A stretch of 64,000 nucleotides of DNA from Carcharhinus longimanus (lineage: Eukaryota), in the NCBI GenBank assembly GCA_030264375.1, contig JASCQW010000032.1:37438910-37502909 (forward strand), in the 5' to 3' direction. Within the stretch, counting starts at the first letter, position 1. The number at the start of each line of letters is the position of its first letter. Below are positions 1 to 56,370 of the stretch, in pieces. Position numbers and translations under genes: made by a program. The notes under the pieces were generated by a model. That model saw only the letters and a list, made by a program, of their open reading frames with translations. It had not been told where the DNA came from and made no database searches.

Positions 1-265
1 CTGATGGGAAAAGACTAGGACTGACAGATTTATGGTTTTGGGCAAAGTTGTGTTGTGGTGGGGACGTGAATGTGAGGAAAAGTTTTTATACAGTGAGAGG
101 TACTGACCTCTAACTTGGTAGTGGAAGCAGGGGCAATTAATGATTTCAAAAGGAAATTGAGTGGATACCTGAGGGAAATATACCTGCAGGAGTACAGGAT
201 TAGAGCAGGGGAATGGGGCTGACTATTGAATTGTTGTACAGAGAGCCAATATTTACTTGATGCTG
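1..265 (+). mobile_element. CR1 LINE 3' fragment
   Basis: Typical CR1 ORF2 end and 3' UTR wording (gtggaagcaggggcaattaatgatttcaaaaggaaattg). Confidence 0.6.
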
Positions 266-289
266 ATTCATTGATGAAATAAGGTCAGT

Positions 290-1540
290 TGAAGCCTGCC
301 TTTGTAACTTGGCCCACCTCATTTCCCAGCACCAGTTTCATCAGTGCCTTCTTCCAAGTTGAATTGGAATATAATGGATAAGGAAGTTCTTATAGATATT
401 TCTTGCCTTCCTTTCCATTTCTGTAGCATTATCCCAATTGATATTTGGGCAATTAAAATCCCCAATGTCATTATTCTGCCTCCATCTCACTCACTATTTG
501 GAGGATGATTGTATCGTATTCCCACATGACTATTTGTGCTTGTAGTTTACCAACCTTATTTAACAGACTTTGTTCACTTACATACATGCATTCTTCACCA
601 CCTTGTATTCCTCATAATTTAAACTCTCTCCAACCACAGTTAAGAACTTTTCCACAAGGACATTATTGCAGCCCTGTGGGGGTGCAACCGTTGCTTTAGA
701 AGCGATGCCTCCTGCCCCAGAAAATGCCCCAAGAATCTGAAGCTGTCAGTCCTGCAGCAGGCTTCAAGTCATACGTTAATGCTTTGTAGATTGCTGTTTC
801 AACTCTGAATAGCCTGTGACAGTAGGGATAATACAGAAGTGATTATCTTTAAAATTCTACTATTTAACTTTGTCCCTAGCTCCTGAAATCTGACTTTACA
901 ACATCAGTACCTGCCCTTCTGTCATTGGTACCAATGTGTCCCCAAATTTATGGCTCACTCTATTCCCTCTGCAGAATATTCTAAATCCTTTTTCTTGCTA
1001 AGTTTAAGTTTATTTATTAGTTACAAGTAGGCTTCCATTCACATGCAATGAAGTTACTGTGAAAATCTTGTTGTCACCACATTCCAGTGCCTGTTTGGGT
1101 ACAGAGGGAGAATTTAGCCTGGCCAATTCACCTAACCTGCACATTTTTGGACTGAGAGAAGAAACTGGAGCAGCTGGAGGAAACCCACACAGACACAGGG
1201 AGAACGTGCAAACTCCACACAGGTAGTGACCCAAGCCAGGAATCGAACCCAGGTCCCAGGTGTTGTGAGGCAGCAGTGCTAACCACTGTGCCACCATGCA
1301 GCCTGTGCTGTCCTTTATCGTAGCACCAGGGAGGTAACATACCTTGCAGCATTTACAGTGATGGTTATAGAAATGCGTATCTGTCTCCCTAACTATGGAA
1401 TCCTTTATATCAACCACATTTCTTTCTTGTTCTTTCCTGTCTACATTGATGCCATGGCCTGCACTGTACTCCTCCAAGGTTCCATCACTTCTAACAGTCT
1501 CCAATACTGATTGCTGGTCCCTGCAGTCTTCAGTCGCCAA
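290..1540 (-). mobile_element. Old CR1 LINE ORF1 (SGNH esterase) and endonuclease fragment, split by a SINE
   Basis: Minus-strand DSIVRETD...CYLPGATIKD, then HIGTND on the far side of the SINE. Confidence 0.7.
1001..1303 (-). mobile_element. tRNA-derived V-SINE (HE1-related, variant tail)
   Basis: Minus-strand head tggcacagtggttagcactgctgcctcaca, B box ggttcgattcc, V-domain gtgtggagtttgcacgttctccc. Confidence 0.88.
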
Positions 1541-1879
1541 ATGAAAAGTACAGTTGTTGATCTCTCATAGAAGGTTTCTGTACTTCCCTGGAGCCTGATG
1601 GTGGTGCTGTTTTACCACTTCGGATATAAACTGCAATTTATTTTCAGTGGTAAAATCTTGCCTCTAGAATATTTCCAAATGCTCCTAAAAACTCCATGTT
1701 ATTCATGTTAAGAATTGAAGCAAGGAATTAACAATGCATTTGGCAACACTTGTGAATATCTGAAACCACCCAGTTTTGAGTAAATTGTGCCAGTCAGTGA
1801 TCCTTCTGTCCATACTTCAAACAGAATGTATAGTTTTCACATAATCTTAGTTCAGCTGGCTGCAGAGTAAAATGGTAAT

Positions 1880-4615
1880 AATTAATGCACAACAAAGATG
1901 GAATGGAAGGTAAACTGTTGTGACTGCAGAATGTGGGAGTTCCTGGACAAGAGTGTGATCCAAGGCAAACACGTTTGTAATATGTGTCAGAGGCTCGAGT
2001 AGCTTCAATTCTGAGTCATTGAGCTGGAGACTGAGCTGCAGACATTGCGATGCACCAGCGAGGGGAAAGCTACCTGGTTACTTGGTTCCAGAAGGTGGTC
2101 ACACCCATTAGGACACAGTCTCTGGATTCATCTAGATTTGATGAATACTCGGACTGGAGGGTGTGACTGAGTGAGGCAGTGAAGGAGATTGATAAGATAC
2201 AAGTGGCGCAGCCTTAGTTTTTTCAACTGACAACAGGTTTGAGTTCTTGTAGCCTGTATGGATGAAAGCAGAGACTGCAGGATGAATGAGCATACTGGCA
2301 ATGATACTGTGGCAAAGGAAGCCATTCAAGTCTGAGTGGGCGTTGAATAGGATTGTGGTGGTAATAGGGGACAGTAGAGTCAGTTGGAGAGGGAATTGAC
2401 ACAGTTCTCTGCAGCAGGAACATGCATATCAACGGCTGTGTTGCTGGCCTGATGCCAGAGTTTGAGACATCTGCCGGGGCTAGGGAGGAAGTTGATCTAG
2501 TTGTGGTTTACATTGGTACATAGGACTAGGAAAGAGGTTGGGGATTAGGAGCAGCTAAGGGCTAAATTGAAACGAAGAACCTCAAAAATAATCTCTGGAT
2601 AATTACCTGAGCTACAAACAAATTTGTGTAGGGTCAATAAGTGCATGGCTCAAACGTGGGATAAATGTGTTTCAATTAATGAGATCTAAGAACTAAATCT
2701 TTGGAATGGCCCTCATTTGAGACAAACTGGGACCAGTGTTCTGTCGATTGGTATAGGTAGGATGGTAGAGAGGGCTTTAACTAAAGAGTGGGAGGAAGAG
2801 ATCATTTGAAAGGAGATGTAGTGAATGCAAGCGTAGTGATGAGATAACAGAGCAGGGGAGTGATTTGGGTAAAGATAACCAGGAATGGACAGAGCATACA
2901 AACTTAAAAGTGCAGCAGCAGATAAGGCTAAAGTTTGCAAAAATAATCAGAAGATGTAATTAATGGCCCTGTACCTGCACAATATTCATAACAAAATAGA
3001 TGAATTGTTAGCACAGATAGAAATATTAATAAGCTGATAGTCATCATTGAGATGTGGTTGCAAAGTGACCAAGGCTGGGACCTGAATATTATATTGTAGA
3101 ATATTTGACATTTGAAAAAGATGGGAAGCTAAGAGAAGCTGGCAGGATAATTCTGTTAATTAAGGATATCATTAGTGCTATAGTAAGAGATGACTTTGGC
3201 TTGAAAGAGATGTAGATTCAGTGACACAATTTGGGTAGAGATGAGATGGCGAAAAAGTAAGAGGCTACTTGTGGAAGTTGTTTATAGGTCTTTGAACAGT
3301 AGTTACATTGTCAGACAAAGTGCGTAGGGAGAAATAAATGGGGCATGTAAGAAAGGTAGTAATCATGGGTGACTTCAATCTACATGTGGATTAGACACAG
3401 AGATTGTCAGAGATAACCTGGAAGATGAGTTCATAGTTTGTGGGAAATTTCTTAAGGCGGTATGTTCTAGGGCCAACCAGAGAGCAGTGATTCTAGACCT
3501 GGCAGTGAACAATGGGACAGGATAAATTTTTTGATAAGATGCTACATCAAATGTTATATCACTAGATAAGATCTTATGAAGGAGGTAGCATATTATCATG
3601 GTTAAAGGATTGGTTAGCTAACAGGAAGCAGAAACTAGGGAAAATGACTCTTTTTCAGGTGGGCATGCTGTAACTAATGGAGTGCCACATGCATCAGTGC
3701 TGAGGCCTCAGCTATTTACAGTTTATATAAATGAATGATTTGGATAAAGGGACTGAATGTGTGGTTGCAAAATTTGTTGACACCAAAGTAGTTAGGAGAG
3801 TGTCTGCACAGGAATATGGACAGGTTACATGAGCAGGCAAAAATTTCATTAAGTGATGTGCAATGTGATTGAGTTTGTCTACTTTGGCAGGAAGCATAGA
3901 AAATTTAAATTGAGGGAGATTGCAGAGCTCAGTGATGCAGAGAGATCTAGGTGACTTGGTACACAAATCAACAAAAGTTGGTGTGCAGGTTTAGCAAGTG
4001 ATTAGGAAAGCAAATGAAATATTAGCATTTATTGCAAGAGGAATGCAATATTAATGCAACTGTACAGGGCATTGATAAGATATCTGGAATAATATGTACA
4101 GTTTTGGTCCCCTTATTTGAAAAAAAAATACAGTTATATGAGAAACAGTTCAGAGGTGATTCATTGCTAGGATGAAGAGCTCATCTTATGACAGGTTGAG
4201 CAGGTTGTTTTTATATCCGTTGGAGTTTAGAAGAATGAATGGTTATCTTATTGAAACACACAAAATCTTGAAGGGACTTGATTGGGCAGAGAGTGAGAGG
4301 ATGTTTCCACTTGAGAGACAAGAATTAGCGGACACAATTCAAGGAGTAAGAGGGCTTCCTTTTAAAATGAGATGAGATCTTTTTTCTTGAACCTTGTTAG
4401 ACTGTGGAATTCTCTTCCACAGAGATCAGCAGACGTCAGGGTCATTGACTGTACTCATAGCAGAGTTAGACGGATTTTTGATGCAAAGGGGAGCCGAGGG
4501 TTCTGAGAGGCAGACAGAAAAGTGGAATTGAGACCACAAACAGATCTTACTGAATGGCAGAGCAGTCTTGAAGTGCTGAATGGCCTACTCTGGTTCCTAA
4601 GTTGAATGTCCCTAT
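1880..4615 (+). mobile_element. Degenerate near-full-length CR1 (HER1-like) LINE with an internal deletion
   Basis: In order: ORF1 esterase remnants, endonuclease (IMGDFNLH at about 3362), RT (GVP-SVL-PQLFTVYIN at about 3680, KF-DTK) and 3' UTR (tgaatggcctactctggttcct). Confidence 0.85.
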
Positions 4616-4749
4616 GAATATTAGCATCCTTGCATGGAGCAATATGTGGGTATGAGTTCAGTTTATGTTACAGCATCAAGTGTAAGCTTCCTTCTGGGTT
4701 TAAAAATTGAAGGTAGTTGTGTGTACATTTTTAGACAAGGTAAAATTAA

Positions 4750-5196
4750 AATACATTTATATAGTGCTTTTAATATTCTTGATGTATCAAAGACTGAAAT
4801 GATTTCCAGCCAATGGCTTACTTTTGAAGTATAGTTAGAGGGATTTTGTCGGTAGATGGCGTAGCCAGTTTGTGCATTGCAAAAGCAAGGAACAGGAATG
4901 GGTAAATGTTCAAATAATCTGCTTTAATGATATTGGCTGATTTGAATCGATATTAGCCAGAACACGAGGGAAACTGTTTTATGCTTGAATCATGCTGTAG
5001 GATCTTTTGTGCCAGCAGAATATGTAGGTGATGCCTCAGTTTATCGTCTGCTGTGAAGGACGATGCATGTGACAACAAAGCATTCCTTCAGTACTGCACT
5101 GAATTGTCAGTTTTGATTATGTGCTCAAGTTTTCAGTGCTGTTTGAAAACACAACCTTCTGGCTTGGAGAGAAGAATGCCGCCCCTGAGCCTAGCT
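4750..5196 (-). mobile_element. DeuSINE (SacSINE1/AmnSINE1-like), old copy
   Basis: Recognisable Deu-domain wording: cattccttcagtactgcactgaattgtcag...gattatgtgctcaag...acaaccttctgg. Confidence 0.7.
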
Positions 5197-6269
5197 TACA
5201 AAAATTCAGTGTTGATGAAAAAAGAGTTTTTTTTTGGTGGTCTGAGAAAAGACACCCTGAAAACTGTTGCTTTGATTATCATGATGTTTGACACTTGCAT
5301 TTTTCTGCACAAGTCTTTGTTTTTTTGACTGATAAATACTGTGATTTTGCAATTGTTCACTCCTGGTTTGTTTCTGTCATCTGTCTAGCAGAAGGAAGCT
5401 TTTACATCTTCATTTAAGAGAAAACAGATATTCACTGTAATGTAGGGATATGGGTATTGAATAATGCATTATGATCTTGCAGCAGGCTCTCTAAACCCAT
5501 TGGTGTACATGAAATTACATTGTATAACTCCTTTATATATCCTGTACTAATATGGCTGAAGCCTGTCAAACTGTTGAGCACTAAAAAAATAGAATTTACT
5601 TGTTAAACTTTTCTGTATACTAAAAACAAATGCTGAGCTAAAAGAAATTGCTGCCCTGGAATTTGCTTTTGTTATATTTATCCATCTAGTTATAGTGTAT
5701 AAATATGTTAAATTCAAATCAGGAGATTGCTGAATGATGGGCCAGTATGGCCCTACTGGTGCAGTTGTTAATCTGATGAAATTCTATTTCTCTCTTGACT
5801 TGAGGATTGTACATACAAAGAATTTGGGCATTAACCCGTGGCTTTTGGATATACCACTTCTGGCACAAAATTGTCTGGAATTTTATTTTAAGTTGTTATT
5901 ATCCAGCCAATCCCAATGATGAAAACCATATAGATAAGTCAGCTGCAAAACATGTATGTTCATATATCCTGCTAAATTTTTCATATGTTTCAAAGTGCAA
6001 TGGATTCGTACATTGAATATTTGCACTACAGAGAGTGCACTGCCAAAGCTAGGATTATGGTGCACTATTGGAGCCGACTTAAAGCTTTACTGTCCATCCA
6101 ATCATGATGCACTTAACCAGAATGTGATGTTCATGCATGATATCCAAAATGGAAAATTGATGGGAAGGAAATAATGTAGAGGAAAAGTTACTTCTGGAAA
6201 ATCAGTCATGATCTGAATTCTAAGGTATCTATTGCTGTTATCTTATGGAACTCTCTCTCCTTTCTCCAG

Positions 6270-6363
6270 GGATAGTAGCAGTGACAGTGATTCCAGCTCA
6301 TCCAGTAGCAGCAGTGGCAGTAGCAACAGCTCTTCCAGCAGCAGTTCAAGCAGTTCAAGTGGA

Positions 6364-6404
<41 letters not shown>

Positions 6405-8791
6405 TGATAGCAGTAGAAGGAGCTCTTCTTCAAGTCCTCAGGATAAAAGAGGCAGATCACCAAGGAATACCAGCAGGAGAAAGGAGGAAAGGCACTTTGA
6501 GAGAAGAGACAGAATTTTCTCACATGGGGACCATCGGATGAGAATATCAGAGCGTGAAAGAAGGGATGAAAAGCTTCCCGCCAGGGAAGAGCGAAGCTCA
6601 AATATCAAACAGTCAGCTTGGTCAAAGGATAGGAGGCTAGAGAGTGACAAAAGACGACGCTCCCCAGAGAGTTCTTGGAAAGAACCTTCAAGAAGCCGTA
6701 GTCCTCAGGAGATATGGCGAAGATACAGTCCAGATTCAAGGAGTAAAATTGATGATAGGAATAGAAGACATAGAAGAAAATCAAGTAGTCTTTCTCCAAG
6801 ACATCAAAGGAGGGAATATAGGTCCAGTTCTAGAAGTCCTCATCGGTCATCAAGAAAGGAGGGTACAACTTCAAAGTTCAGTAGAGTAGAAAAATCTGAC
6901 AGTCACAGAAAAAGTCCAGAGAGTCGGGACAAGAGACCATTGAAAGATACTCGTCCAGCAAGTAACAAGAGTTCTTTACAGGTAGAAGAAAGTTCACGTC
7001 GAACACAAACTAGAAACTATAGTCCTTCGAGGTCAAGGCATTGTCTTTCTCATCATGAGTCAAGGGAGAAAAACCGAGAAAGCAGGAATCCTAGATCAGA
7101 AAGCTCATCTCGTAGCCCTCCTGTAGAAGATGTTAAAAGTTCTAAGAGCTCTGACTCTCATTGTTCAAATACGAGGCACGACTCCCAAAAATACAGTAAA
7201 TTAGTAGAGTCTGATTTGGGGAGAAGGGAAGAAGAATATATTGTTACACAAGGGAGAGGGAATACTTCTGAAAGTCCAGATAGTAATGAGCCAAGCACTC
7301 GATCACCAAGTTATAGAAAACAATCACAGACTGCAGTGAGCTCTGTTAGAGAATGTTTCAGAAATATTAGCCCTGAAAGTACAAAGCAAAAATCTCCAAG
7401 TCCCTCATCAAGAAGTAGAACTGATGAACGTGAATGTACTCCTCGAGCACAGCAACAAAAAGCAGATGATTCACCCTGTTCAAGTGATAGAGAACTGCAG
7501 AAATCAGCATCTGAAAGTCCCAGATCATCTCGAAATGAAATTTCTGATTTTCAAAACAGCAAAGGAGTTCTACCAGACAGTCTAGAAGAAAGTAAAGCTC
7601 CTACAGTGCAGGAAAAAGATAACCAAAAAACAAGTCCTGATCAAGGGAAAAAAAATTGGCCTGAAAGTATTCATTCCACAAGCAAAATAACTCTGTCCTG
7701 CTCTGCCACAAGTTCTGGAAAAGATTTATCTGCAGAGAAGAGTAATGATGAATCAAAATGTCAAGACCTTGATTTGGGGAATAGCAAAAAAGATAGGAGC
7801 AGAAACTCCTCTAAAAGTTCAAGGCGAAGATCATCAAGCACCTCATCGTCGTCGTCATCTTCGTCATCCTCCTCTACTACCTCTTCCTCATCATCGTCAT
7901 CATCTACATCATCTTCATCAACGTCCAGTGAAGAAGAGAATAACGATAAACCAAGTTGTGACCAAGAACAGCCAACATCACTGCACAAACATGAGAAGAA
8001 AGGATCTAATTCAGAGACTTCGCCACTGCACATAAATACAAATAGTGACAGAGGAAGTCCAGATGGGAAGGAAGAAAACAGGTTTCAAGACTTGGAGCCA
8101 TTGAGTGAGAGAAGGATGCTCTGTCTTGCAGACAGTACTGGGAAGATTCCTTCGCGAAGTCATAGTCCTTTGGAAGAGCAATCCCAATATCCAACTTCAT
8201 GTGATGCAATATATGAAAATTTGACGTCCGTGCAGGAAATGCACAGTCCTGATGGAGTATCTTCAAGTGAAAAGAAAGCAGATTATAAAACTGATTCAGA
8301 CACATCGGCATCATCTCCAGTTAGGGTTACGCCCAGTTCTCAAAAAAGTAGAAAGTCTCTGTCAGACACCGAAAGAGCAGATGAAAGGAGCTGTCAAAAA
8401 GTAAGCCCTGACAAGGAACCTGACAGTACTTTGTCATCTGATCCAACAGATGACAAGAACCTGCAAGCCATAAATAGCTCTGAGGTAGAAAATTCAAATA
8501 TTCAGAGTCCACATGTATCCAGTCAAAGGCAGCAGAGTCCCATTTTGGACAGTGAAGAGAGAAAAGAACAAACTCCTCTTCAGAAAAAGAGGCAAAGATC
8601 ATCTTCCTCCGAAAGGATGGTTGGTTCTGGATCTGGATCTGACAGCCCTCGGGAACCTCCTCACAAAATAACATTGAAATCGAGTAGTCCTGTTTCTGGT
8701 TTGAAGACGGGATCAGGGCTTTCTCCCACTGCTTCATCACAAGAGCAGGAACAGGAGGAAGAACACAGCAAAAGACCAAGGGACATGACAG
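6270..8791 (+). CDS. Giant Ser/Arg-rich (RS, SRRM2-like low-complexity) coding exon, about 840 codons; predicted N-terminal extension exon of CWC22 or last exon of an upstream gene
   Basis: Stop-free frame 6232-8838. Polypyrimidine tract and AG (ctctctctcctttctccag, ends 6269) open it in phase 2. Donor ACAG|gtacag after 8791 is phase 1. Contains many RS/SP dipeptides and two poly-Ser tracts. Confidence 0.85.
6271..6420 (+). repeat. Coding (AGC/AGT)n microsatellite, poly-Ser tract 1
   Basis: Pure core gcagcagcagcagcagcagcagcagtagtagtagtagtagt at about 6364-6405. Confidence 0.95.
7831..7930 (+). repeat. Coding (TCN)n repeat, poly-Ser tract 2
   Basis: tcatcgtcgtcgtcatcttcgtcatcctcctct...tcatcttcatca. 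Confidence 0.9.
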
Positions 8792-10214
8792 GTACAGTTA
8801 CTTTTGATTGGATGCACACTTCAACATGCAAAGCTTAGTCATACAATTAACAATGGGGGAACAATGGGCTTTTATCTTGAAAGTTGTGTGATCTGTAAGA
8901 ACGATTCTCTAATTTGAAACCGTTGGAAATAGAGCATTGGAGGGAACCAAACAATACTGTTCAGCCCATTTAATTTTTTATTATCATAGTTATCTGTGGC
9001 TGAGGTGGGTAAATTTTCTTGTACAAGGGATACATATGTACAACGGTAATACGAACCCCCGCCCCCCCAAATCTTAGTACTCTCTGCCCAATTGCTACCC
9101 TGATTTGATTATCCACCTGCCCACTGAATCACTCAGGACTTACCTGTTAATTTCCATTCACTTGCCTGTCCAATCCAAACCTTGGAAACCTTTACACACA
9201 CAAGCTGATGTCATAAAAAGAAGGCATGTTCTCTATGATGCTCCTCTTTACCAATGTTCCTCATGGATGGCTAGCCTGAAGCATTGCTGCTCCTGGCTGG
9301 AAGGATGCTTGGGTGTGATATAATGCTCTTTGCGGTAAGTGGTAATCATCCAAATCTGGGCCAAAGTAAATCAATTTAGAAATGTCGTATATCAGTCTTT
9401 TGTTTCAATGTAGCACTTCATTCAAAAAGCCAATTAGGTATTGTAGCCTTTTTCAGCTTTTTAATATTGTCACTGGCAGCAATTGTGCTATTCTCATTGA
9501 AGCAATGAAGTAATAGACTACTAAAGAATATCAATTTTGTCTTATACTGTGAGATAATTCCAGGGTGGATGCTTCTACTCAAACTTCTAGAAAAGCTGTG
9601 ACCAAAACTTTACCTTTGGAGTTTATCAAGATTCAAACAAGCATTACTTGAGATAATTATGACCCTCAAGGTCACAACCACAGTCATTGCTTATTTGGTT
9701 GGAATCTTGATTCAAGATATACTCAGACTTTTGTCCAGACAACTTGTTTTGGTTCCCAGAGAGACTGGTAGTCTAAAAAAAACTTCTAGGTGATAACTGA
9801 AAGGATAACATGACAGGATTTTACAATTTAAGACTTACTGTAACAGATTAATAGCACTATGGCAAAACACTGTCATGATAGGCAACATGTTTTTAATCTA
9901 CAGAAGATGATTTCCCCTATTCTAACGCAATTGTAAAACCCACAGGACACAGTAATAATTTACACTGACCCTTAAGTAGTCATTCCTCCCATTTTACCCT
10001 AAATTAAAGCAGTCCCAAAACAGACCAATCTTATAAAACCTTTACATTTGTAACATTGTGTATAACTTTAAGGATAATACTTTCTATAATCCTAATTTGG
10101 CTGAAAAGGAATCTTCTTTCTCTTGATAAGCAACCAAACAAAAAAAATTCTTCATATAATTGAATACATCCATCTCAATGCACAATCATAAGGGGCATAC
10201 AACTCTGCCCTTGT

Positions 10215-10810
10215 TAATAGTAATTGATTATGTAGAATTTACAGTAAAGGGGCAGTAAGAGAATGGGCCATTCAGCCAGCTGGTATTTGCACTCCACAAG
10301 AGCATGACCCCGGCACTCCCCTTCATTTGAACCGATCAATGTATCCCTCCATTCCTTGTTCCGTTCCTTTGTGTACTGATCTGGAACCCCCTTCAAATGC
10401 ATCATTGTGGTTTACTTCAGGTTTCAGCACATCCTGATCAATCTCTGGGTGAGGAAATTTCTCCAGAATGATTTTTTAAATTTATTAGTGACTTTCTTGG
10501 ACTTACTACATCTGCCTTCTCCATGTCTACCTTTTCAAACCCCTTTATAATTTTTATGAATTTTAATTTAGTTGACCCCTCAGCCTCTCTGTTCCAGAGC
10601 TGGAGAGTTGCAGTTCAGTCTTTCTCAGTAGCTGTAATCTCTCAATTCTGTTATCATCCTTGTTAATCTTTATGCACCTTCTCCTGTGCCTCTTTTTTCC
10701 TTTGGGAGGATGGAGTATTGTGTTGGAGAGTGGGAGGGTGCTGGATGGATGCATGGAGATCAGAACTGTGCACATGGTACTATATGTGGTTGAGCCAAGA
10801 TGAGTTGTAC
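10215..10810 (-). mobile_element. Old CR1 LINE 3' fragment
   Basis: Reverse-complement CR1 tail and ORF2 end (gggccattcagcc, cccctcagcctctctgttccag). Confidence 0.55.
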
Positions 10811-12887
10811 AATGATAACTTTGTAGCAACATCTATTCTAGTCAATTCCCATGAAACATGTTGAATTCATCAAACTATTTCTTTTTAGCATGCATATAAT
10901 TTTTTAAAATTTACTCATTATTTCACAGTTTTTCTTTATGACTTTTATTTCAATTTAAGCTCCTTCATCCAAGGAGATTAAGTTGCTACTGAAACCTCTA
11001 ATTTCTACTGTGGGTTGGGTGATGAAGGCATGCCAGGAGAGGGCACATTATGAGTTAATCTGTTTGAAGTTAATATCTTATCGACGGCAGTTGGATACTT
11101 TGGTATTTTAAGAATAATGGCTTGGATTTTGCAGACAGCAAAACTGTCAGTATTCGCAGAAAGCAACAGCAGCATTTTGAATCAATACAAGTGCAGGATA
11201 GTGCAGAAGTCCAGAAGCTGTCAGTTATTCTGCACTTTTCCAGAAATACCCTAGACGCCAAGCAATACATGAGAACTTTCATGTTTATGCTGTTTATCTC
11301 AATGCAAGAATCTTTGAAAAAAATCGCGTCTTGTTGAAGGAAACGCAGCTGGGTTTTTACGTGTCCGAACTTCATAATTTCTGTTAAATGCCCTCACTAA
11401 CACTGAAATGCCAATTTCACATTTATAGAATGTCAAATTCCACTGTGATAAAAATTCCATATTTTAAAAAAGGCTATCCTTAGTTTAGCTTTCATGTTAA
11501 TTCAATCATAATCACTTTTCGTTCTCTGAAAATATAAATTAAAAGCGAAGTATATTAAACTGCTTGTAACTTCATGCTTTGCTTTCTGCGAATAATTGAA
11601 TGTGTTTATCTGCATTCCTGACACGATCACCTGTGCACATCAAAACATCTCTTTGACTTGACTCCAAATTTAACCTGCCACTGGGAAAAGGCAACACCTT
11701 GTCAGTGATCTTCAAGCTCAGCAGCAACCCTCTTTGAATCACTGTTGACTGGAAAATCCAGGTCATAATCTTAAAACTGATTTTGGAATTGACCATTCGG
11801 ATGAGTTATGAATACTAAATTGAAATGTTAAGTAGCCCTGGCATGAAAGTTCTGTGTTTTGGGCTGGTGGTCGATACTTTAGAATACCAATGCACATTAA
11901 TATTAGTGCTTTTAATGTATTAAATATTCCAAGGCACTTCATCCTAACTAGTTTCCCACTTCATAAGAGATTCCCAAGTAATTCCATTGTGGCAGTTCAT
12001 TAGTGTAGCGGTGTAACTTGAAATAAGATGGAAAGGTTCGTAACTGTTTTTAAAATTGCGTTCCAAATCTTCGATAATAAGTTATTAGTGGAATAAACCA
12101 AATTAAATTTTGCCCCTTCAGAGGCACATGGTAATATTTCTTTCTTGATCTAAATCCGTTTAGTGTGGATGTAGATAGAATACAGATGAACCAAATTCAG
12201 CAGCTTATGACATTCAGATGCCTCATTTATTGCATTTGAGTTGGGATTGAATCGTGGATCAGTGCTTCCAGAAGATGGCTACAGAGACCATAAATTGTGT
12301 TTCAAACTTGCACTTAAATGCTTCAATTTTTTTAAACATTTAAAACCAGCACTGTTAATTTATTTTAGCATTTTTCAAATGTCTACACCCCTATATATGT
12401 CCAAGTACCTCATTGTATATGTTTTCTTCATCTATGGATGTGGCAAAATCTGTATATAATTCGTAAACCTCATCTTTTTTGTGCAGAATATCATGCCTGA
12501 TTTACAATGTCCTTGGAATAGTCAGAATAAAACTGCAAGTTGGCAGAGCAAGTTCTTTTTAATGAAAAAATGTAATGGGAATAAGTACTTAATATATTTT
12601 CCTAATGAACTCTCCTCTGTAATGTGGCACCGTATTTAATATGAACAGAGGATACTTGAGAAAGCACTGTTAAATAGGAGATTAATTGTCTAATTTGGAA
12701 TCAGTTTGATAGATATGTAGTTAAAGCCTGTAACTAGTTCTACAGCTAATTATGGTTGCATGAACTAATTGTTTTTAACCATTTATTATTTCAGTTCTTT
12801 ATATGTAGCTTTATTTAACTTCTGGTTCAAATTGATTAAAAGTATGGTGCAAAATGTGTTCATAAATATTTTTGAAATTTTGGTCAG

Positions 12888-13078
12888 GCACGGAAATGGC
12901 TGAGAGCTCCCTGAAGGGCAATGGCGAGACCGTTCCTAGCAGAGAAGACACCAGTAATTTGGAGAAACCTGTGAATACAGAAGATGGGGCAATTTCAGGC
13001 AGTTCAGATAGTGAAGAGAGTGCAGCCAGCAGTGGTACAGCTGTCCAAAAAATGAAAAGCAGTGTAGTCCAGATTCAG
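12888..13078 (+). CDS. CWC22: CWC22 exon containing the canonical start MKSSVVQIQ (ATG 13052) and an in-frame upstream ATG (12896)
   Basis: Acceptor ttttggtcag| and donor CAG|gtaaga. MKSSVVQIQ matches the recalled human N-terminus MKSSVAQIK, with 27 coding nt before the donor. The whole exon is open in frame. Confidence 0.9.
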
Positions 13079-25950: not shown

Positions 25951-26819
25951 TCAGCAAAAATTATACGTGTATTTTTAATTTTTTTTAAATCTACATTTGC
26001 TGAGAATTTGTTGATTAGCTCAGCTGATGAATCAGAAGCTAGAAATCCCAATGTTTCAGATTACCAGTAAATGTATCTTGTTAAATTTTGATTCAGAAGT
26101 CAAATCCAATCCCTGTTCCACCTGTGTATGTTCGCCTCCTTTATGCTTCCACTTCCACTTCCATTTTGTTAACTCTACCTTATCTGCTACTTAAACCTTC
26201 ACCTATACCTGTCTGCCTCCAGATTTTCCAATATGTATCTCACTGTCCNNNNNNNNNNNNNNNNNNNNNNNNNNNNNNNNNNNNNNNNNNNNNNNNNNNN
26301 NNNNNNNNNNNNNNNNNNNNNNNNNNNNNNNNNNNNNNNNNNNNNNNNNNNNNNNNNNNNNNNNNNNNNNNNNNNNNNNNNNNNNNNNNNNNNNNNNNNN
26401 NNNNNNNNNNNNNNNNNNNNNNNNNNNNNNNNNNNNNNNNNNNNNNNNNNNNNNNNNNNNNNNNNNNNNNNNNNNNNNNNNNNNNNNNNNNNNNNNNNNN
26501 NNNNNNNNNNNNNNNNNNNNNNNNNNNNNNNNNNNNNNNNNNNNNNNNNNNNNNNNNNNNNNNNNNNNNNNNNNNNNNNNNNNNNNNNNNNNNNNNNNNN
26601 NNNNNNNNNNNNNNNNNNNNNNNNNNNNNNNCTCAACTCCGGTATCAGCCTAGTAAACCTCCTCTGCACTCCCTCCAAGGCCAAAATATCCTTGCGCAGG
26701 TGCGGCGAGAATCTTTTTTCCAATCAATGCACCTCATAATTTCTAGATTTTTGTCAAGTCTCCCTTCAGCCTCTGCCGCTCAAGTGAAAGTAACCCTAGT
26801 TGTCCAACCTCCTTTTCTA

Positions 26820-27470
26820 ATCCCAACCCCTCATCCCAATGGCATTTCCATTATCCAAACCCCACTGTTAACATCCAGGGCATCATCAGTGACCAGAAAT
26901 TTAATTCAATCAGATATGTAAATGCTGTAGCTATAAGACCAGAAGCTGGATAATCCATGACAAGTGACTCACTTTCTGGTTCTTCAAAGCCTTTTCATTC
27001 ACCCACAAGGCTTAAGTCAGGATTGTGTTGGAATACCCTTCATTTGCCTGATTGAATGCAACTACAACACTGAAGAAGCTCAGCACCGTGCAGGATAAAG
27101 CAGCTTGCTTGACAGGCACCCCACCACCATCCTTAAATATTCATTCCTTTTACTATTGATGTACAGTGGCTACAATGTGTACCATCTGCTGGATACTCTG
27201 CAGTAAGTCATTGAAGCTACTTTGGCAACATTCTCCAAACCCTGGGAGGTGCATGGAACACCAACACCTGTAAGTTCCCTTCCCAAGTCGCACACCATCC
27301 TGACTTGAAACTAAATCATCATTCCTGCATTGATGTTGGGTCACAATCCTGGAACACACCACCTGAAGTGCAGCAGTTCAAAAAAGTGGCTGACCCTCAC
27401 ATTTGCAGCTGCATTTGGGCATTAACAGTAAATGATGGCATTGAGAATTCTGCTTTCATCCTTTGATTTT
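26820..27470 (+). mobile_element. CR1-group LINE 3' fragment
   Basis: caggataaagcagcttgcttgacaggcacccc; same family as 14450-15175. Confidence 0.65.
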
Positions 27471-27835
27471 AAAAGAGTCCTGCTCATGTTTCACCTTCTC
27501 CCCACTAATTTTTATTTGGACCCTGACATGATGGCTTGATTTATGTGACCTTGTTGCACTTGAACACTCACCTTCTTCAGTTCCACCTCATACCCTCTCT
27601 CCTCCTTACTGTGTTCTATGTATCATCCTTCTGCTCCCATGTTGGCGGCAGAACCGTGTCAGTCATCATCAAGCTACTTCATGCTGTGTTTGCTGCACCT
27701 CAAATAACTTAATCTATTTCTGGATCAAATATGTGGCTATTCATTGTTCTTCCTATACTGCTTTAATTTTCCTATCATGCAGCATTTTGGGACATTTGGG
27801 TATGTCAAACTTGATATACAAATGCAAATACAAAT

Positions 27836-28066
27836 CATAGAATCCCTACAGTACTGAAGCAGGCCACTCAGCCCATTGAGCCTGTATGGACAACAATCCC
27901 ACCCAGAACTTATCTCCATAACCCCATGTGTTTACCCTGCTAATTCCCTTAACTTGCAGATCTTGGGACCCTAAGAGGCAATTTATCATGGCCAATCAAC
28001 CTAACCCACACATCTTTGGATTGTGGGAGGAAACCAGAGCACCTGGAGGAAACCCACGCAGACACA
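27836..28066 (-). mobile_element. HE1-type V-SINE truncated by a gap
   Basis: catagaatccctacagt...gaggaaaccagagcacctggaggaaacccacgcagacac. Confidence 0.88.
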
Positions 28067-29324
28067 NNNNNNNNNNNNNNNNNNNNNNNNNNNNNNNNNN
28101 NNNNNNNNNNNNNNNNNNNNNNNNNNNNNNNNNNNNNNNNNNNNNNNNNNNNNNNNNNNNNNNNNNNNNNNNNNNNNNNNNNNNNNNNNNNNNNNNNNNN
28201 NNNNNNNNNNNNNNNNNNNNNNNNNNNNNNNNNNNNNNNNNNNNNNNNNNNNNNNNNNNNNNNNNNNNNNNNNNNNNNNNNNNNNNNNNNNNNNNNNNNN
28301 NNNNNNNNNNNNNNNNNNNNNNNNNNNNNNNNNNNNNNNNNNNNNNNNNNNNNNNNNNNNNNNNNNNNNNNNNNNNNNNNNNNNNNNNNNNNNNNNNNNN
28401 NNNNNNNNNNNNNNNNNNNNNNNNNNNNNNNNNNNNNNNNNNNNNNNNNNNNNNNNNNNNNNNNNNNNNNNNNNNNNNNNNNNNNNNNNNNNNNNNNNNN
28501 NNNNNNNNNNNNNNNNNNNNNNNNNNNNNNNNNNNNNNNNNNNNNNNNNNNNNNNNNNNNNNNNNNNNNNNNNNNNNNNNNNNNNNNNNNNNNNNNNNNN
28601 NNNNNNNNNNNNNNNNNNNNNNNNNNNNNNNNNNNNNNNNNNNNNNNNNNNNNNNNNNNNNNNNNNNNNNNNNNNNNNNNNNNNNNNNNNNNNNNNNNNN
28701 NNNNNNNNNNNNNNNNNNNNNNNNNNNNNNNNNNNNNNNNNNNNNNNNNNNNNNNNNNNNNNNNNNNNNNNNNNNNNNNNNNNNNNNNNNNNNNNNNNNN
28801 NNNNNNNNNNNNNNNNNNNNNNNNNNNNNNNNNNNNNNNNNTCTTCACCCTGAGGTCGAAGGCCTGGATATAAGCCAATGTTGGCTTGTCAGGATCATGG
28901 ACTTCATGATGTTGCAGTGCCCCATCATCTGCTTACAGGTGGCTTTGTGGGCTACCCACATCAAATGAGGGCTGATAACACAAGTGTGACATTTAGTTTC
29001 AGTTTACCATTGGTGTGCAACCACAGAAGGAATTTATCTTCAATGCCCACAATCCTGACAACCCTGTTGTTGCTTTTATCCTTCCAACACTCTCCAATTT
29101 CCTTTGCTTTGGATCCTCTAGACAAAACAACAAGATAGTTGCTCAAGTGGCAAGTGCTACACCCTTGATGTATGGCTTGGCACATGCTACCATCTCACCA
29201 CACAAGATTAGGAATTCTTCAACAAGAACCCTGGAGTCACAAGAAACACTGAAACAATCCATTGGTCTTTTAAAACAGCTTTCACAGATGGAGCTCTCCA
29301 TATTTATTGTGATATGCCCTTTTC

Positions 29325-30560
29325 TTTGATTTGATTTTTGTCACATCTGTTGGCATACAGTGAAAAGTATTGCTTCTGCGCACTATACCAACAAAGCATA
29401 CCATTCATAGAGAAGGAAACGAGAGAGTGCAGAATATAGTGTTACAGTCATAGTTAGGGTTCAGAGAAAGATCAACTTAATGCAAGGTAGGTCCATTCAA
29501 AAGTCTGACGGCAGCAGGGAAGAAGCTGTTCTTGAATCCCTTGGTCTGTGACCTCAAACTTTCATATCTCTTTCCCGACGGAGCAAGGTGGAAGAGTGAG
29601 TGTCCAGGGTGCTTGGGGTCCTTAATTATGCTGGATGCTTTGCTGAGGCAGCAGGAAGTGTGGACAGAGTCACTGGATGCGAGGCTGGTTTACGTGATGG
29701 ATTGGGCTACATTCACCACCTTTTGTAGTTTCTTGCGGTCTTGGACAGAGCAGGAGCCATACCAAGCCGCGAAAGAAGGCTTTCTATGGTGCATCTGTAA
29801 AAGTTGGTGAGAGCTGTAGCCAGTCTTTTGAGAAAGTAGGGGCATTGGTGGACTTTCTTAACTATAGCGTCTGTAGTCCAGGACAGGTTGTTGATGATCT
29901 GGATACTTAAAAACTTGAAGCTCTCGACCCTTTCTACTTCATCCTAGTTGATGTAGACGGGCGTGTTCTCCTCTACGCTTCCTGAAGTTGATGACTATCT
30001 CCTTCGTTTTGTTTACATTGAGGGAGAGATTATTGTTGTAGCACCAGTTCACCAGATTCTCGATCTCATTCCTTTATTCTGTCTTGCCATTGTTTGAGAT
30101 CTGTCCCACTCCGATGGTGTTGTCAGCAAACTTGAAAATCAAATTGGAGGCGAATTTGATCACACAGTCAGGTGTATAAAGAGTATAGTAGGGGGCTGAG
30201 AACACAGCCATGTGGAACACCAGTGTTGAAGATGATTGTGGAGGAGGTGTTGTTGCCTATACTTATTGTGGTTTGTGAATTAGGAAGTTCAGGATGCAAA
30301 TGCAGAGAGAGGAGCTGAGGCTCAGGCCACAGAGTTTGGAAATAAGTTTTGTGGGTATAATAGTGTTGAAGGCTGAGCTGTAGTCAATAGGAGTCTGACA
30401 TAGGTGTATTTTTATCTAGGTGTGTTCCAGGGTTGAGTGCAGGGCCAGGGTGATGGCACCCGCTGTGGACCTGTTGTGGCAGTAGGCAAACGAGTGGATC
30501 CAGGCAGTCCAGGAGACTGGAAGTGATTTTGTGCCATGACTCAACTTCTGAAGCACTCTG
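29325..30560 (-). mobile_element. Rex1/Babar-clade LINE, 5'-truncated
   Basis: Minus-strand [31 protein letters not shown]; (ATCAA)n tail at about 29325-29340. Confidence 0.8.
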
Positions 30561-30689
30561 CAATCTCTGCAGTCTCACAGGAATGAGGCCCCAACTATTA
30601 TCTTCTGGAATCCAGAAGCCACCCGGGGATGGAATGTTTGCAATACATATTTCCAAGAACTATATGCTTTTTAAAAAGGCTGGAAGAAC

Positions 30690-31737
30690 ATTGAATTACT
30701 AGGGCACTTCTTTGAGAACTGACCAGTTTTCCCATTTAAAAAAAGGTTATAAGTTCACTTTGGACTGTTGAGTTGCCATTTTCAGGAAACCAAATGATTT
30801 CAGCTAAATGACCCATAAAGACACCTGAGGAGATGAGAGCGATTTGCTTATTTGAGTTACAATTACTGGAGGAAAATAATTATGTTTCAGAGTCTCAGGC
30901 CCTGATAATTTTATTGGAAACCACCTGACTGCGAGGAGTTTCTGTTTTGAACTTGTGATTTGGACTCAGTTTTGGGAATGAACCAAAAGGGGAAGGTTGT
31001 GCAACTCGCTCTCTCACTACCTTGCCTGAATTCCATTGCAGTTATGTGTCCAGCTACAGGTCCTCATCTCCACATGATTTGAAAGCCTGAGAAGCTGAGC
31101 CAAGAGAGAAGTCTTAAGGACATTGACCCTGCCCTGTTCTCCTCCACACCAAAATTCCTTTGGAAAGAACTTCCAGACAGCTACAAAGACAGTATTCTAT
31201 CTTCACACACAAAATCACCAGATTGACAGCGTCAAACCCCTTCAGATTTTGGATGTAATTTTCCAGCCTCGCTTGCCCCGAAACCAGAAAATCCCACCCG
31301 AGGCCACTGGACTTGCTCTGATCCACATGGCAGGTGGGATGGTAAAATTCCAGCCTTTGTCTTTTCTCATAAGGTTTTCCTATTGGCCAGAAGGTGCTTT
31401 TCTCTTAAACGCCAACCTCTGCAAAGACCCAGTTTGTTTTGTCTTTTGTGTGTAGATATGTTGGAATTTAAAGAGGTATATAGTTACATTTCCAGATTAC
31501 AGATTGTATATTGGCCAGTTTTTGCAAGTTGTTTTCCAAAAGCCGTTTTGTACTAAAGCAATCATTGAGGTTATTGAAAGGCAGCTGGTTAAAATCACTC
31601 TTACTCTAGGTGTAACAGCAGCAAAAATAAATAATTGGTAATTTTGGGTGAGTGAAGTAAACATTTATTCCTGATGTGTGACCTGTGGAATAGCGGGACT
31701 GGAGAAACTGCACACTCCTCTTGTTCCACTTGTAACA
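30690..31737 (+). mobile_element. Possible solo LTR
   Basis: Ends in ...tgtaaca after an aataaa; general LTR-like composition only. Confidence 0.35.
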
Positions 31738-32210
31738 GAAACACGGTGGCCTACATAACAAGGCTTTGCTTTCGTTGAAAGTAACTTCTGAACCTCCCAA
31801 TATGAACCCATCATCTCTTTACATTACATCCATTTCAGACTGCCCGTCACAAAATTGCCTTGGTCAACATCATTCAATGAAGTTACGCACAAAAATTTTC
31901 ACCAACTTCATCCAGCAATATATCAAGAATACAAAAAACCCTTGTAATCCCTGATGTTGCAGATTAAACCATCAGTACTACAAATTCTATATTTGATTCC
32001 ACTCCCTTCTGACCTCAGGGAAAAGTGGTGTAAGCTGCCAGACCAGATAATGATATAGCATTAATAGCAAGGAATTTGAAGGGGGTGGTGGGGAAGATCT
32101 TTTTTGTTCAATGCTCCATGAGAGAAAATAATTATTTTTATAAGTGACATAAATGCTAGATTTTAAAATTATATACCAAAAAAACTACTTGTTTCTTGCT
32201 TCTGAATTAG

Positions 32211-32346
32211 GCTCACGAAGTGCTTTCTCTGGAAATGCTCACATTACTGCTGGAGCGGCCCACAGATGACAGTGTTGAAGTGTCAATTGCTTTTCTGAAG
32301 GAGTGTGGAATGAAGCTGACAGAGGTTTCTCCTCGAGGCATTAATG
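32211..32346 (+). CDS. CWC22: CWC22 exon ([24 protein letters not shown]...VSPRGIN)
   Basis: gaattag| ... G|gtgact; 136 bp; PTDDSVEV motif. Confidence 0.97.
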
Positions 32347-32431
32347 GTGACTGTGCAGCTGAACTCATGTAGCATTTTAGTAACATTAACTCCAATTTTG
32401 CTTCTTGCTCAATTTGTGATTTTTGTTGCAG

Positions 32432-32638
32432 CAATATTTGAACGTCTTCGCAATATCCTTCATGAATCTCAGATTGATAAACGTGTCCAGTATATGATTG
32501 AAGTGATGTTTGCAATTCGAAAAGATGGATTTAAGGATCACCCGATCATACCTGAAGGTCTTGATCTAGTTGAGGAAGAGGATCAATTTACTCACATGCT
32601 TCCTTTGGAAGATGAATATAATCCTGAAGATGTGCTCA
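32432..32638 (+). CDS. CWC22: CWC22 exon ([38 protein letters not shown]...NPEDVL)
   Basis: ttgttgcag| ... A|gtatgt; 207 bp; preceded by an 85-bp intron. Confidence 0.97.
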
Positions 32639-33402
32639 GTATGTATTTGAATAAAATGTTCTATAATTTCCCAACAGCTGCAAATAAACTATGTTGTGTA
32701 CTTGTAAGATTTTGATGCAAGTGTGCTGAATCTTGGCTCTTGATTTTCATCTTTTCAGTTTTATACAGTGGAGATTTAACGTCATGTACAAAATAATGTC
32801 TTGGAACAGTGTGGTGATTACATTAGTGTATAAATAATGCAAATTAATATATATGGATTTATTCAAAGCTACCAACACAGGTGGGCTCATCTTCTAATGG
32901 AATGAGTGATGAGCATTCAGATGTTCACTGCTATTTTGTGTCAGGAGCCAGAGGAAGTCTGGATGCATGTGCTTAACTGAGAAGGTCAGACACCCAGTGG
33001 GCAGAGGTGTGCTGCCTGGACCTCCATGGATGTCTTGAACATTGACCTCACCCTTGTGGACTTGGGCTCAATACCCAAAATTTGTACAGAATATTTGAGC
33101 CGTTAAATCACCTCCACCAACAACACCCATCGCTCAGCCCTCCAGCTGTGTCCACTTCTAATCCATTGGGTAGTTCTTTTAACGCATCAGGTAGTTCTTT
33201 TAACGTCCATTGGGTAAAGAATAGAAAAATGCTGTCAGAACCTGAATGCATTTGTGAGCAGCTGTATCCACTTAATTCATTGACTGAACACACGAAAAAA
33301 TGCACTCAGGCCTAATGCATTTTACTATTTATTTCAAGTACTTTTTGATTTCATGTCAAGACTTTTCTATGTTTCCATACATTAAATTAAAGGCTATACA
33401 TA

Positions 33403-34490
33403 ATAAGAACATAAGAAATAGGAGCAGGAGTAGGCCATCCAGCCCTTCGAGCCTGCCCCGCCATTTAATAAGATCATGGCTGATCTGTCGTGTCTCAGTT
33501 CCACATTCCCACCCTCTCCCCATAACCCTTAATCCCCTCTCTTNNNNNNNNNNNNNNNNNNNNNNNNNNNNNNNNNNNNNNNNNNNNNNNNNNNNNNNNN
33601 NNNNNNNNNNNNNNNNNNNNNNNNNNNNNNNNNNNNNNNNNNNNNNNNNNNNNNNNNNNNNNNNNNNNNNNNNNNNNNNNNNNNNNNNNNNNNNNNNNNN
33701 NNNNNNNNNNNNNNNNNNNNNNNNNNNNNNNNNNNNNNNNNNNNNNNNNNNNNNNNNNNNNNNNNNNNNNNNNNNNNNNNNNNNNNNNNNNNNNNNNNNN
33801 NNNNNNNNNNNNNNNNNNNNNNNNNNNNNNNNNNNNNNNNNNNNNNNNNNNNNNNNNNNNNNNNNNNNNNNNNNNNNNNNNNNNNNNNNNNNNNNNNNNN
33901 NNNNNNNNNNNNNNNNNNNNNNNNNNNNNNNNNNNNNNNNNNNNNNNNNNNNNNNNNNNNNNNNNNNNNNNNNNNNNNNNNNNNNNNNNNNNNNNNNNNN
34001 NNNNNNNNNNNNNNNNNNNNNNNNNNNNNNNNNNNNNNNNNNNNNNNNNNNNNNNNNNNNNNNNNNNNNNNNNNNNNNNNNNNNNNNNNNNNNNNNNNNN
34101 NNNNNNNNNNNNNNNNNNNNNNNNNNNNNNNNNNNNNNNNNNNNNNNNNNNNNNNNNNNNNNNNNNNNNNNNNNNNNNNNNNNNNNNNNNNNNNNNNNNN
34201 NNNNNNNNNNNNNNNNNNNNNNNNNNNNNNNNNNNNNNNNNNNNNNNNNNNNNNNNNNNNNNNNNNNNNNNNNNNNNNNNNNNNNNNNNNNNNNNNNNNN
34301 NNNNNNNNNNNNNNNNNNNNNNNNNNNNNNNNNNNNNNNNNNNNNNNNNNNNCCCCTTAACGAAACCGTGCTGCGTCTGCTGTATCAAGCAATTCCCCTC
34401 AAGATGCCTCGCTATTTCCTCCTTGATGACGGATTCCAACATTTTACCCACAACAGATGTTAAACTAACTGGCCTACAATTCCCTGCCAT
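33403..34490 (-). mobile_element. Young CR1 LINE spanning a gap
   Basis: GNCRPVSLTSVVGKMLESVIKEEI...QHGFVKG on the right flank; CR1 tail on the left flank. Confidence 0.85.
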
Positions 34491-34803
34491 ACAAATGCAT
34501 AACAAAGCACTACAGTTCCATTCCTTGTGCTGCTGACATCAAACAGGGTGTGGTCTTGGCCTCAATAATATCTTTGCAGATGATGCATCCTGCACCTAGG
34601 ACAGTAAGTCCCTTAAGCTCCAGCACAAAAAGATAAGGCTGCACTTTTAAATTGCAGCAAGTACCACAGCCTCAGATGACCAGATGATCTGATCTGTTAT
34701 TTAACAAACTTGACATTTCAAGCATCATCGCAATCACTTTAGTTTTAGTATTATTTAAATTCTATTGGATGTTTTTTCACAATTAAAACTCTTTCAAATA
34801 TAG

Positions 34804-55244: not shown

Positions 55245-55597
55245 GTGAGTATTGATTTGCATGTGCTCAGTTGTCAATAGAAGGTTGGTACAGTGGAAAT
55301 TAAGATATTTAAATGTTGCTGGCACCCATAAGGAACATGACTGATCTAAACTTTGCTGCTACCATATACAGTTTGAGGTCTGTAAGGCTACTAACCATCG
55401 CAAATATCATGATAATGGCAAGATATATGTAGTCTAAAGGCAGGGAAACACATGAAGTTAAGATATTGCATCAGGTGTGTAATTTGAGGTAAACTTTGAG
55501 AATTGACAAGAAGTTGAGTCAATACTTGTTTCATGTTGAGGCATGGTGAGGGTGTGAAACTTATGTCTCAAGGTTTGATTTTGAGACCCATATTCGA

Positions 55598-56370
55598 GTC
55601 ATAGAGGTATACAGCATAGAAAGGGGCACTTGCATCCATCACGTCTACTCGGGTCAAAGACAAACAACCTAACTATTCTAATCCCATTTTCTAGCACCTA
55701 GCCCATAGCCTTGTATGGCTTGGCATCACAAGTGCACAATTAAATACTACTTAAATGTTATGAGGGTCTCNNNNNNNNNNNNNNNNNNNNNNNNNNNNNN
55801 NNNNNNNNNNNNNNNNNNNNNNNNNNNNNNNNNNNNNNNNNNNNNNNNNNNNNNNNNNNNNNNNNNNNNNTCTAGCCCATAGCCTTGTATGGCTTGGCAT
55901 CACAAGTGCACAATTAAATACTAAAATGTTATGAGGGTCTCTGTCTTCACCATCCTTTCATGCAGTGAGTTCCAGACTCCCACCACCCTTTGGGTGAATA
56001 AGTTTTTTTCCTCTCATTCTCTCTAAACCTCCTGCCCCTTACTTTAAATCTATTGCCTCCTAGTCATTGATCCTTCCACCAAAGGGAATAATTTTTTTCC
56101 TGTCCACTCTATCTATGTCCCCCATAATGTTATACACCTCAATCCTGACCCCCCTCAGTCTCCTCTGCACCAAGGAAAACAATCCCAATCTATCCAATCT
56201 GTCTTCATAACTAAAACTGTCCAGCCCAGACAACATCCTGGTAAATCTCCTCAGCCCCCTTTGCAATATCCCTTCTATAATGTGGATTCCAGAACTGCAA
56301 ACAATATGCTAATTGTGGCCTAACCCAATAACCTCCCTGCTATTAAACTCAATGTCTCAACTAATAAAGA
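55598..56370 (-). mobile_element. CR1 LINE 3' fragment spanning a gap
   Basis: RRFTRMLSGLDSFSYEDRLDRLGLFSLVQRRLRG. Confidence 0.85.

Follow-up and report, generated by a model that had tools for sequence, protein, structure and literature searches.

The stretch of DNA analyzed here (the window) comprises 64,000 nt of the genome of the shark Carcharhinus longimanus (G000:C32:37438910-37502909, forward strand). It carries exons 2 to 15 of the gene for CWC22, which was modelled together with 200 kb of upstream and 100 kb of downstream sequence. A 2,522-nt exon (window 6270-8791), which codes for a long N-terminal extension (referred to below as the arm), is the second exon of this one gene. The model has 21 coding exons with GT..AG boundaries throughout, and its coding sequence of 5,445 nt (1,814 codons) has a single terminal stop. 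The predicted protein has about twice the length of human CWC22, with about 850 extra N-terminal residues. It would have a mass of about 205 kDa (about 111 kDa if counted from the Met of a MAES motif in exon 3).

All exons are on the plus strand. Exon 1 (L003:7295-7451) is located 12.55 kb upstream of the window and is a CpG-island first exon with a 5' untranslated region (5' UTR). Its start codon (L003:7441, which is G000:C32:37426350) is followed by very little coding sequence. The exon contributes only 11 coding nt (M-P-R and two bases of a further R) and ends with a phase-2 donor (CG/gtgagt). The exon reaches at least 80-129 nt further in the 5' direction, past a gap of 100 N. Intron 1 has 18,818 nt, of which the 3' part (1-6269) is in the window. 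Exon 2 codes for residues 5-844, with split codons at both ends. It is followed by intron 2 (8792-12887, 4,096 nt, GT..AG), which contains a TAG at 8836-8838, and by exon 3 (12888-13078, 191 nt), which contains the MAES Met (residue 848) and the Met of MKSSVVQIQ (residue 900). The 12 exons 4-15 (16152-55244, all GT..AG and in frame) complete the N-terminal linker, code for MIF4G and lead into MA3, of which they hold the first part. The window ends within intron 15 (5' part, 55245-64000). Exons 16-21, which are located 16.5-24.7 kb past the window end, code for the remainder of MA3, the S-domain and the basic tail with the stop codon. Exon 20 holds a Ser/Asp run and exon 21 the tail, so that the S-domain and the basic disordered C-terminal tail after MA3 are both present.

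MIF4G (PF02854) followed by MA3 (PF02847) was found above the Pfam curated cut-offs in the CWC22 protein from Mustelus asterias, which is 96.8% identical to the model (isoform X1, 1,811 aa). One exon of the window matches human CWC22 in PDB with an E-value of 6e-39, and one exon of the CWC22 core has a single match in the genome (both of the two candidates were scored). The gene is an intact single-copy ortholog. As judged from core conservation, the shark protein is expected to bind eIF4A3 and to act in splicing and exon junction complex loading.

The first-pass annotation had described exon 2 as a stop-free, Ser/Arg-rich exon with specific splice sites and phases, and the frame, both acceptors and the donor are as described there. 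The acceptor (...ctttctccag/G at 6270) is in phase 2 and the donor (ACAG/gtacag at 8791) is in phase 1. The acceptor of exon 3 (ggtcag/GCACGGAAATG at 12888) restores the frame, and the joint reads T-G-T-E-M-A-E. Upon recomputation from the model, the 14 coding exons of the window sum to the claimed 4,147 nt (1+4146), and 895 whole codons from exons 2 and 3 precede the Met of MKSSVVQ at residue 900, again as claimed. The region 6271-8835 is free of stop codons up to the TAG at 8836-8838. The other two plus frames of exon 2 have 21 and 100 stops, and the longest stop-free run in 2,000 base shuffles had 199 codons versus 840 in exon 2. The frequency of GAAGA words is 8.3 per kb in exon 2 versus 0.5-1.0 in the flanking introns. 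They could aid the definition of such a long exon, but codon usage alone also yields them. At the joint of exons 2 and 3 (window 12888-12896), two residues (GT) distinguish isoforms X1 and X2 from Mustelus. This suggests a second acceptor 6 nt downstream, where the window has GG rather than AG.

Part of exon 2 was found in 20 public sequencing runs from nine organisms, and the junctions were examined in four runs from four studies. None of the runs is on record as RNA, which says nothing either way, and their nature was judged from the contigs themselves. They are argued to be RNA because the contigs have spliced GT..AG joints and the introns are empty. The splice from 8791 to 12888, which had been proposed as a check on the gene structure, is present in all four runs, with contigs that skip exactly 4,096 nt at GT..AG. 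Exon 2 is covered by contigs in all four. None of these runs has a contig that continues past the donor at 8791, and the depth in the intron 2 bins 8864-9851 is zero throughout. Thus, transcripts that end after the TAG at 8838, which would have spoken for a separate upstream gene, are not seen in these contigs. Among the three junction-carrying runs that were checked at exon 1, two (X2 and X3) have contigs that go from exon 1 into GATAGTAGCAGT, which is window 6271 onward. Run X1 gave no exon 1 match. The exon 1 contigs from runs X2 and X3 (5,988 and 6,308 nt) agree in length and depth with the contigs that span 8791 to 12888. In a further run (X15), intron 1 sequence is covered while exon 1 is not, and this run behaves like DNA. 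The contig from run X2 extends 2,998 nt beyond 13078. The remaining coding sequence (2,721 nt) with a short 3' UTR would fit, and we infer that this contig carries the rest of the gene.

The depth of the exon 3 bin (30.7, 23.3, 10.7 and 34.6 in the four runs) is 0.72 times that of the long contigs (42.5, 32.4, 14.8 and 48). The value of 0.72 corresponds to the covered share of this bin, and therefore there is no second contig over exon 3. In these runs, the long form predominates, and it seems to be the chief product of the gene instead of a rare variant. Because contigs drop rare forms, it is shown to be predominant but not to be the sole form.

Run X1 has a second 5' contig of 314 nt that covers window 6267-6350 (depth 18 versus 42 for the main contig). 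It has 183 nt before the exon 2 acceptor, which end in CAG and have no match to exon 1. This segment may be an alternative first exon or a cassette exon from the 18.8-kb intron 1. There are four CAG-donor candidates, one of which ends at window 1222 in a sequence that, by eye, resembles a short interspersed nuclear element. It is stop-free over 62 codons in the right phase.

In the 200 kb upstream, a single strong CpG island is present at a distance of 12.5-13 kb from the window, with a GC content of 0.64 and a CpG observed/expected ratio (o/e) of 0.87 around exon 1. A back-translated pattern for MPRR with the donor has one match in 264 kb, which is at L003:7441 inside this island. In agreement with an earlier claim, there is no CpG-island promoter before 12888 (intron 2 has GC 0.36 and CpG o/e 0.26). 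It had also been stated that no AATAAA occurs until about 12090. The first AATAAA after 8792 is indeed at 12092, but ATTAAA variants at 10003, 11538, 11554 and 11919 had not been listed. A scan of the 200 kb upstream revealed no long open reading frame recognizable by eye as a cellular gene, although such a scan is blind to genes with small exons. For this reason, the spliced contigs are decisive on upstream coding sequence. Further coding exons upstream of exon 2 had been predicted. Exon 1 bears this out insofar as it is spliced to 6270 in runs X2 and X3, but it supplies just 11 coding nt. Therefore, no upstream domain is contributed: a cwf21 or zinc-knuckle domain, as had been considered, finds no coding room before MPRR, and the four cwf21 matches in the genome are on other contigs (C24523, C160, C162 and C190, not C32).

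At the 5' part of exon 1 (L003:7165-7325), the 100-N gap has the same approximately 30 nt on either side. This duplication is probably an assembly artefact. The duplicated sequence holds a three-codon upstream open reading frame (ATG at L003:7302).

The long form of CWC22 is already in RefSeq for two sharks, so that as a gene model the present gene adds little. Stegostoma tigrinum has one entry (XP_048390158.2, 1,812 aa) and Mustelus asterias has two (XP_078084632.1, isoform X1, 1,811 aa; XP_078084633.1, isoform X2, 1,809 aa). These database models have the same start (MPRR-DSSSD), the same exon 2 arm and the same core, and they differ from the gene described here by substitutions and small in-frame indels. 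Exon 2 is 95% identical to Mustelus asterias isoform X2 and 69% identical to Stegostoma tigrinum (72% in a second comparison). The novelty that had been attributed to the long form is refuted because it is already annotated in these related sharks. A shorter form is also represented in RefSeq. Isoform X3 from Heterodontus francisci has 969 aa and takes the MAES Met of exon 3 as its start. In Stegostoma, the position of the MAES Met is taken by Val. Beyond these galeomorph sharks, the 120 best of the 306 core matches (994-3,166 aa) include no further cartilaginous fish. Our searches of the mostly open-access literature returned no paper on the long CWC22 form, although long orthologs may be included in a CWC22 comparison in Supplementary Figure S7 of PMC4482076. 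An arm annotated as a protein of its own (462-1,470 aa) did not turn up when 8,000 candidates were scored, which is weak evidence. A HMMER search with residues 60-844 against 1.84 billion representatives gave no matches. This result is uninformative because the known relative with 95% identity was not returned either.

The arm consists of three parts. Residues 5-55 form a poly-Ser run, residues 56-320 an Arg-rich basic block (54 Arg, net charge +35, 26 Arg-Ser or Ser-Arg (RS/SR) dipeptides), and residues 321-845 a near-neutral spacer rich in Ser, Pro and acidic residues, with a second poly-Ser run and a net charge of -8. FoldIndex is negative in all 51-residue windows, and the arm is predicted to be disordered throughout. 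In a Pfam scan of exon 2, no family was found. This includes cwf21 (PF08312) and the RNA recognition motif, and the full Mustelus protein has only MIF4G and MA3. The exon had been characterized as RS/SRRM2-like. It is Ser-rich and partly RS-like, but the description overstates the case: the 840 residues hold 43 RS/SR dipeptides, the longest RS run has 5 residues, and the Arg residues cluster in 56-320. The Mustelus N-terminus has 5.7 RS/SR dipeptides per 100 aa, below most of the listed bony-fish CWC22 N-termini (up to 19). The prediction of a giant RS-domain CWC22 isoform holds in that the exon is spliced in frame and doubles the length relative to human, but it looks like the predominant form and not a rare isoform, and it resembles an RS domain only in part.

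The two Ser runs use different codon families (36 AGY and 10 TCN in one versus 2 AGY and 26 TCN in the other). A tandem duplicate of CWC22, with its last exons as the source of the Ser run, was considered and rejected, as a core exon and the arm each match the genome only once. The self-similarity of the gene to exon 20 is limited to the Ser/Asp run.

Between the run contigs and the window, 39 differences are located in exon 2, of which 19 are synonymous, 20 nonsynonymous and none nonsense. The ratio of nonsynonymous to synonymous rates (dN/dS) in exon 2 is 0.31-0.45 (p between 0.0003 and 0.011, depending on the transition weight), on the basis of 40 out of 49 difference rows, one of which is in exon 3. 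Both indels listed in exon 2 (6 and 12 nt) are in frame. On this evidence, exon 2 is under purifying selection. Conservation relative to Stegostoma is uneven. Identity reaches 84% over residues 56-200 (122 of 145), and of the 29 Ser-Pro (SP) sites, 23 are conserved. Per 100 residues, identity is about 0.67-0.77 over most of the arm versus 0.95-1.0 in the core.

Our preferred reading, to which we give somewhat better than even chances, is that exon 2 is an in-frame second exon of a single CWC22 gene and that the arm is not catalytic but likely a multivalent tether, tuned by phosphorylation, which binds CWC22 to nuclear speckles and to pre-mRNA coated with SR proteins. Work on the human protein attributes the minimal functional unit for splicing and exon junction complex assembly to residues 110-665, while deletion of residues 1-109 leaves spliceosome binding unaffected (PMC4482076). 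Because the human N-terminus is dispensable, the shark arm is unlikely to be catalytic. Whether or not the N-terminus is present, the MIF4G-MA3 core would thus do the essential job, both in splicing and as an escort of eIF4A3 when exon junction complexes are loaded. This step is inferred from the human work; those that concern the arm are derived from composition and conservation. The Arg-rich block (56-320) would provide affinity for speckles and RNA. The Ser-Pro, RS and acidic-Ser sites would be kinase targets that switch the arm, and the remainder would act as a spacer. In this way, the arm could enrich CWC22 locally where spliceosomes assemble, as is thought for the tails of SRRM2 and SON. 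Long internal exons preferentially code for disordered regions of nuclear-body and mRNA-processing proteins (PMC9825244), and Arg-rich mixed-charge regions target proteins to speckles (as discussed in PMC9410892). Within the spliceosome, CWC22 is an interaction partner of SRRM2, whose disordered regions form condensates (PMC9410892). The nuclear speckle scaffolds SRRM2 (Cwc21) and SON combine a small conserved spliceosome-binding part with a very long, length-variable disordered extension, as does shark CWC22. The length of these two proteins varies greatly through their disordered regions, according to a source (PMC7671692) that does not mention CWC22. In contrast to these proteins, shark CWC22 has no cwf21 and no long RS repeats (at most 5 aa), and no sequence homology to them was found. 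By analogy, the arm may work like the SRRM2 and SON tails, but the protein is not a member of that family.

Several points weigh against this reading. The speckle role, though likely, is read from composition. Feature matches in Atlas (recognition 1224) do not exceed 0.85 (an RBBP6 fragment, an NKTR-like protein and SRRM4; 0.75 for SRRM2) and are leads only. CWC22 functions without the arm in bony fish and in human, and the 969-aa Heterodontus model starts in exon 3. The 205-kDa product and translation from the MPRR ATG are predictions that rest on the gene model. As contigs drop rare forms, some skipping of exon 2 is possible. A spacer under weak constraint would also agree with a dN/dS of 0.3-0.45; this ratio was computed from 39 differences, with 9 rows left out and with several differences common to several runs.

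Next in weight is an alternative that we consider possible although rather unlikely. The arm may be a tolerated, mostly passive expansion, in which Ser microsatellites and insertions lengthened a disordered exon. Selection would keep it open mainly since a frameshift would destroy the essential protein downstream. The identity of the arm to Stegostoma, which is well below that of the core, fits this view, as do the two Ser runs in different codon families, which are expected of separate repeat expansions. The listed invertebrate or unnamed orthologs have N-termini of anything from 14 to 1,072 aa, and the human N-terminus is dispensable in assays (PMC4482076). However, it is amino acid changes that are depleted in exon 2, and not stops alone. 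Furthermore, residues 56-200 are conserved at 84% between two shark orders, and the total length stays within 1,809-1,814 residues.

The origin of the arm was approached by comparison with other CWC22 proteins. The sets from fishes and invertebrates were taken from the core search, which required at least 994 aa, and they are therefore biased toward long proteins. The N-terminal disordered arm of human CWC22 has about 130 aa. Human (908 aa; PDB 5mqf_T and others) and bony-fish CWC22 share MIF4G, the MA3 core, the S-domain and the basic tail with the shark protein but lack the exon 2 arm (for the domain layout, see PMC4482076). The sequence that precedes the core motif TRTGG has 223-348 aa in all 40 bony-fish proteins versus about 1,020 aa in sharks, and none of these 40 starts with MP[RK]. 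The MKSSV-type motif, with which human CWC22 starts, is internal in all 40 bony-fish proteins (position 70-209) and in sharks (about 900). In a more general form, [MIL][KR]SS[VI][AV]Q[IV] (window 13043-13078), it is kept in four shark and all 40 bony-fish proteins, although the disordered region around it changes fast; Met is often replaced by Ile or Leu. More than the place where the human protein starts, this may be a short motif for binding.

Long Ser/Arg/acidic N-terminal arms, as in sharks, occur in the long invertebrate orthologs of CWC22 (nucampholin), for example in Octopus (2,034 aa), Bradybaena (1,816), Candidula (1,659) and Drosophila (about 1,200-1,370). Among the listed invertebrate or unnamed orthologs, N-terminal length ranges from 14 to 1,072 aa and is at least 600 aa in 8 of 76; mollusc arms reach 941 and 1,072 aa. 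Of the named mollusc proteins, 13 of 18 start with MP[RK], most of them with a Ser/Asp patch soon after, as in sharks. It is tempting to speculate that the MPRR start, the acidic-Ser patch and the long arm represent an ancestral bilaterian N-terminus. This would have been kept in sharks and molluscs, whereas bony vertebrates would have shortened it in steps, with the start moving to exon 3 at first and, in mammals, to the once-internal MKSSVAQIK later. The arm would then be an SRRM2-like speckle scaffold on an exon junction complex loader, and its job would have passed to other speckle proteins. An internal human start motif in fishes, often without Met, fits such trimming. Nevertheless, we regard this scenario as unlikely. 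Homology of the shark arm to invertebrate arms was not detected in any of 15 comparisons (z of at most 2.5 versus block shuffles, as compared to 78 for Stegostoma), so that composition alone is shared. The three listed invertebrate deuterostomes have arms of only 216-281 aa and lack MPR, which also counts against an ancestral arm. Independent expansion in sharks is slightly ahead of retention.

A further alternative, which we consider improbable, is that exon 2 is a regulated switch. Its inclusion would yield the 205-kDa form, and its skipping or the use of another first exon would yield a form of about 110 kDa that starts at MAES, with the ratio set by tissue or condition. The length of exon 2 is not a multiple of three. 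Upon skipping, the frame would read MPRR, then HGNG and a stop that overlaps the MAES ATG, which suits such a switch. So do the Heterodontus isoform that starts at MAES and the unexplained 183 nt before 6267 in the second 5' contig from run X1. However, no skipping contig was found in any of the four runs, nor at the exon 1 donor in runs X2 and X3, and the Val in Stegostoma indicates that some sharks have lost or never had this short start.

The remaining proposal, a read-through fusion of an upstream SRRM2-like or SR-type gene with CWC22, is effectively refuted, and we give it hardly any weight: the TAG reached 45 nt past the donor and the opening Ser/Asp run, as in a terminal exon of an RS protein, speak for it, but the spliced contigs have a single CpG-island first exon with 11 nt as the sole upstream coding sequence, none passes the donor at 8791 or ends after the TAG, there is no island before exon 3, the cwf21 matches are all off C32, residues 60-359 have no second match in the genome, and the orthologs from two other shark species begin at the same MPRR. 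There is one gene, and exon 2 should not be annotated as a separate "SRRM2-like" gene.

CWC22, an essential spliceosomal factor, offers a natural experiment, in which a near-invariant core is combined with an arm of about 130 aa in human and 220-350 aa in the long bony-fish proteins, while sharks and octopus have arms of about 1,020 aa or more. How tail length affects speckle and splicing behavior is a question that has been raised for SRRM2 and SON (PMC7671692).

Some remnants of mobile elements were noted at the locus. About 1.2 kb upstream of exon 1, on the minus strand and head to head with the CWC22 promoter, a 258-codon stop-free frame (L003:5162-5935) carries a complete DDE_Tnp_4 domain (PF13359, E 2.6e-26, profile 1-158 of 158). 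We take this to be a Harbinger/PIF-like transposase. Either a recent insertion or a gene that has been domesticated would fit. In intron 14, two open fragments of 125 and 169 aa (window 50273-51358, minus strand) look by eye like the remnant of a hAT/Buster-type transposase, and they have no Pfam match at E 0.01. Broken fragments that, by eye, resemble the reverse transcriptase of a CR1-type long interspersed nuclear element are located in intron 1 (window about 2900-4500) and in several N-flanked stretches at 26000-34500, several of them beside assembly gaps.

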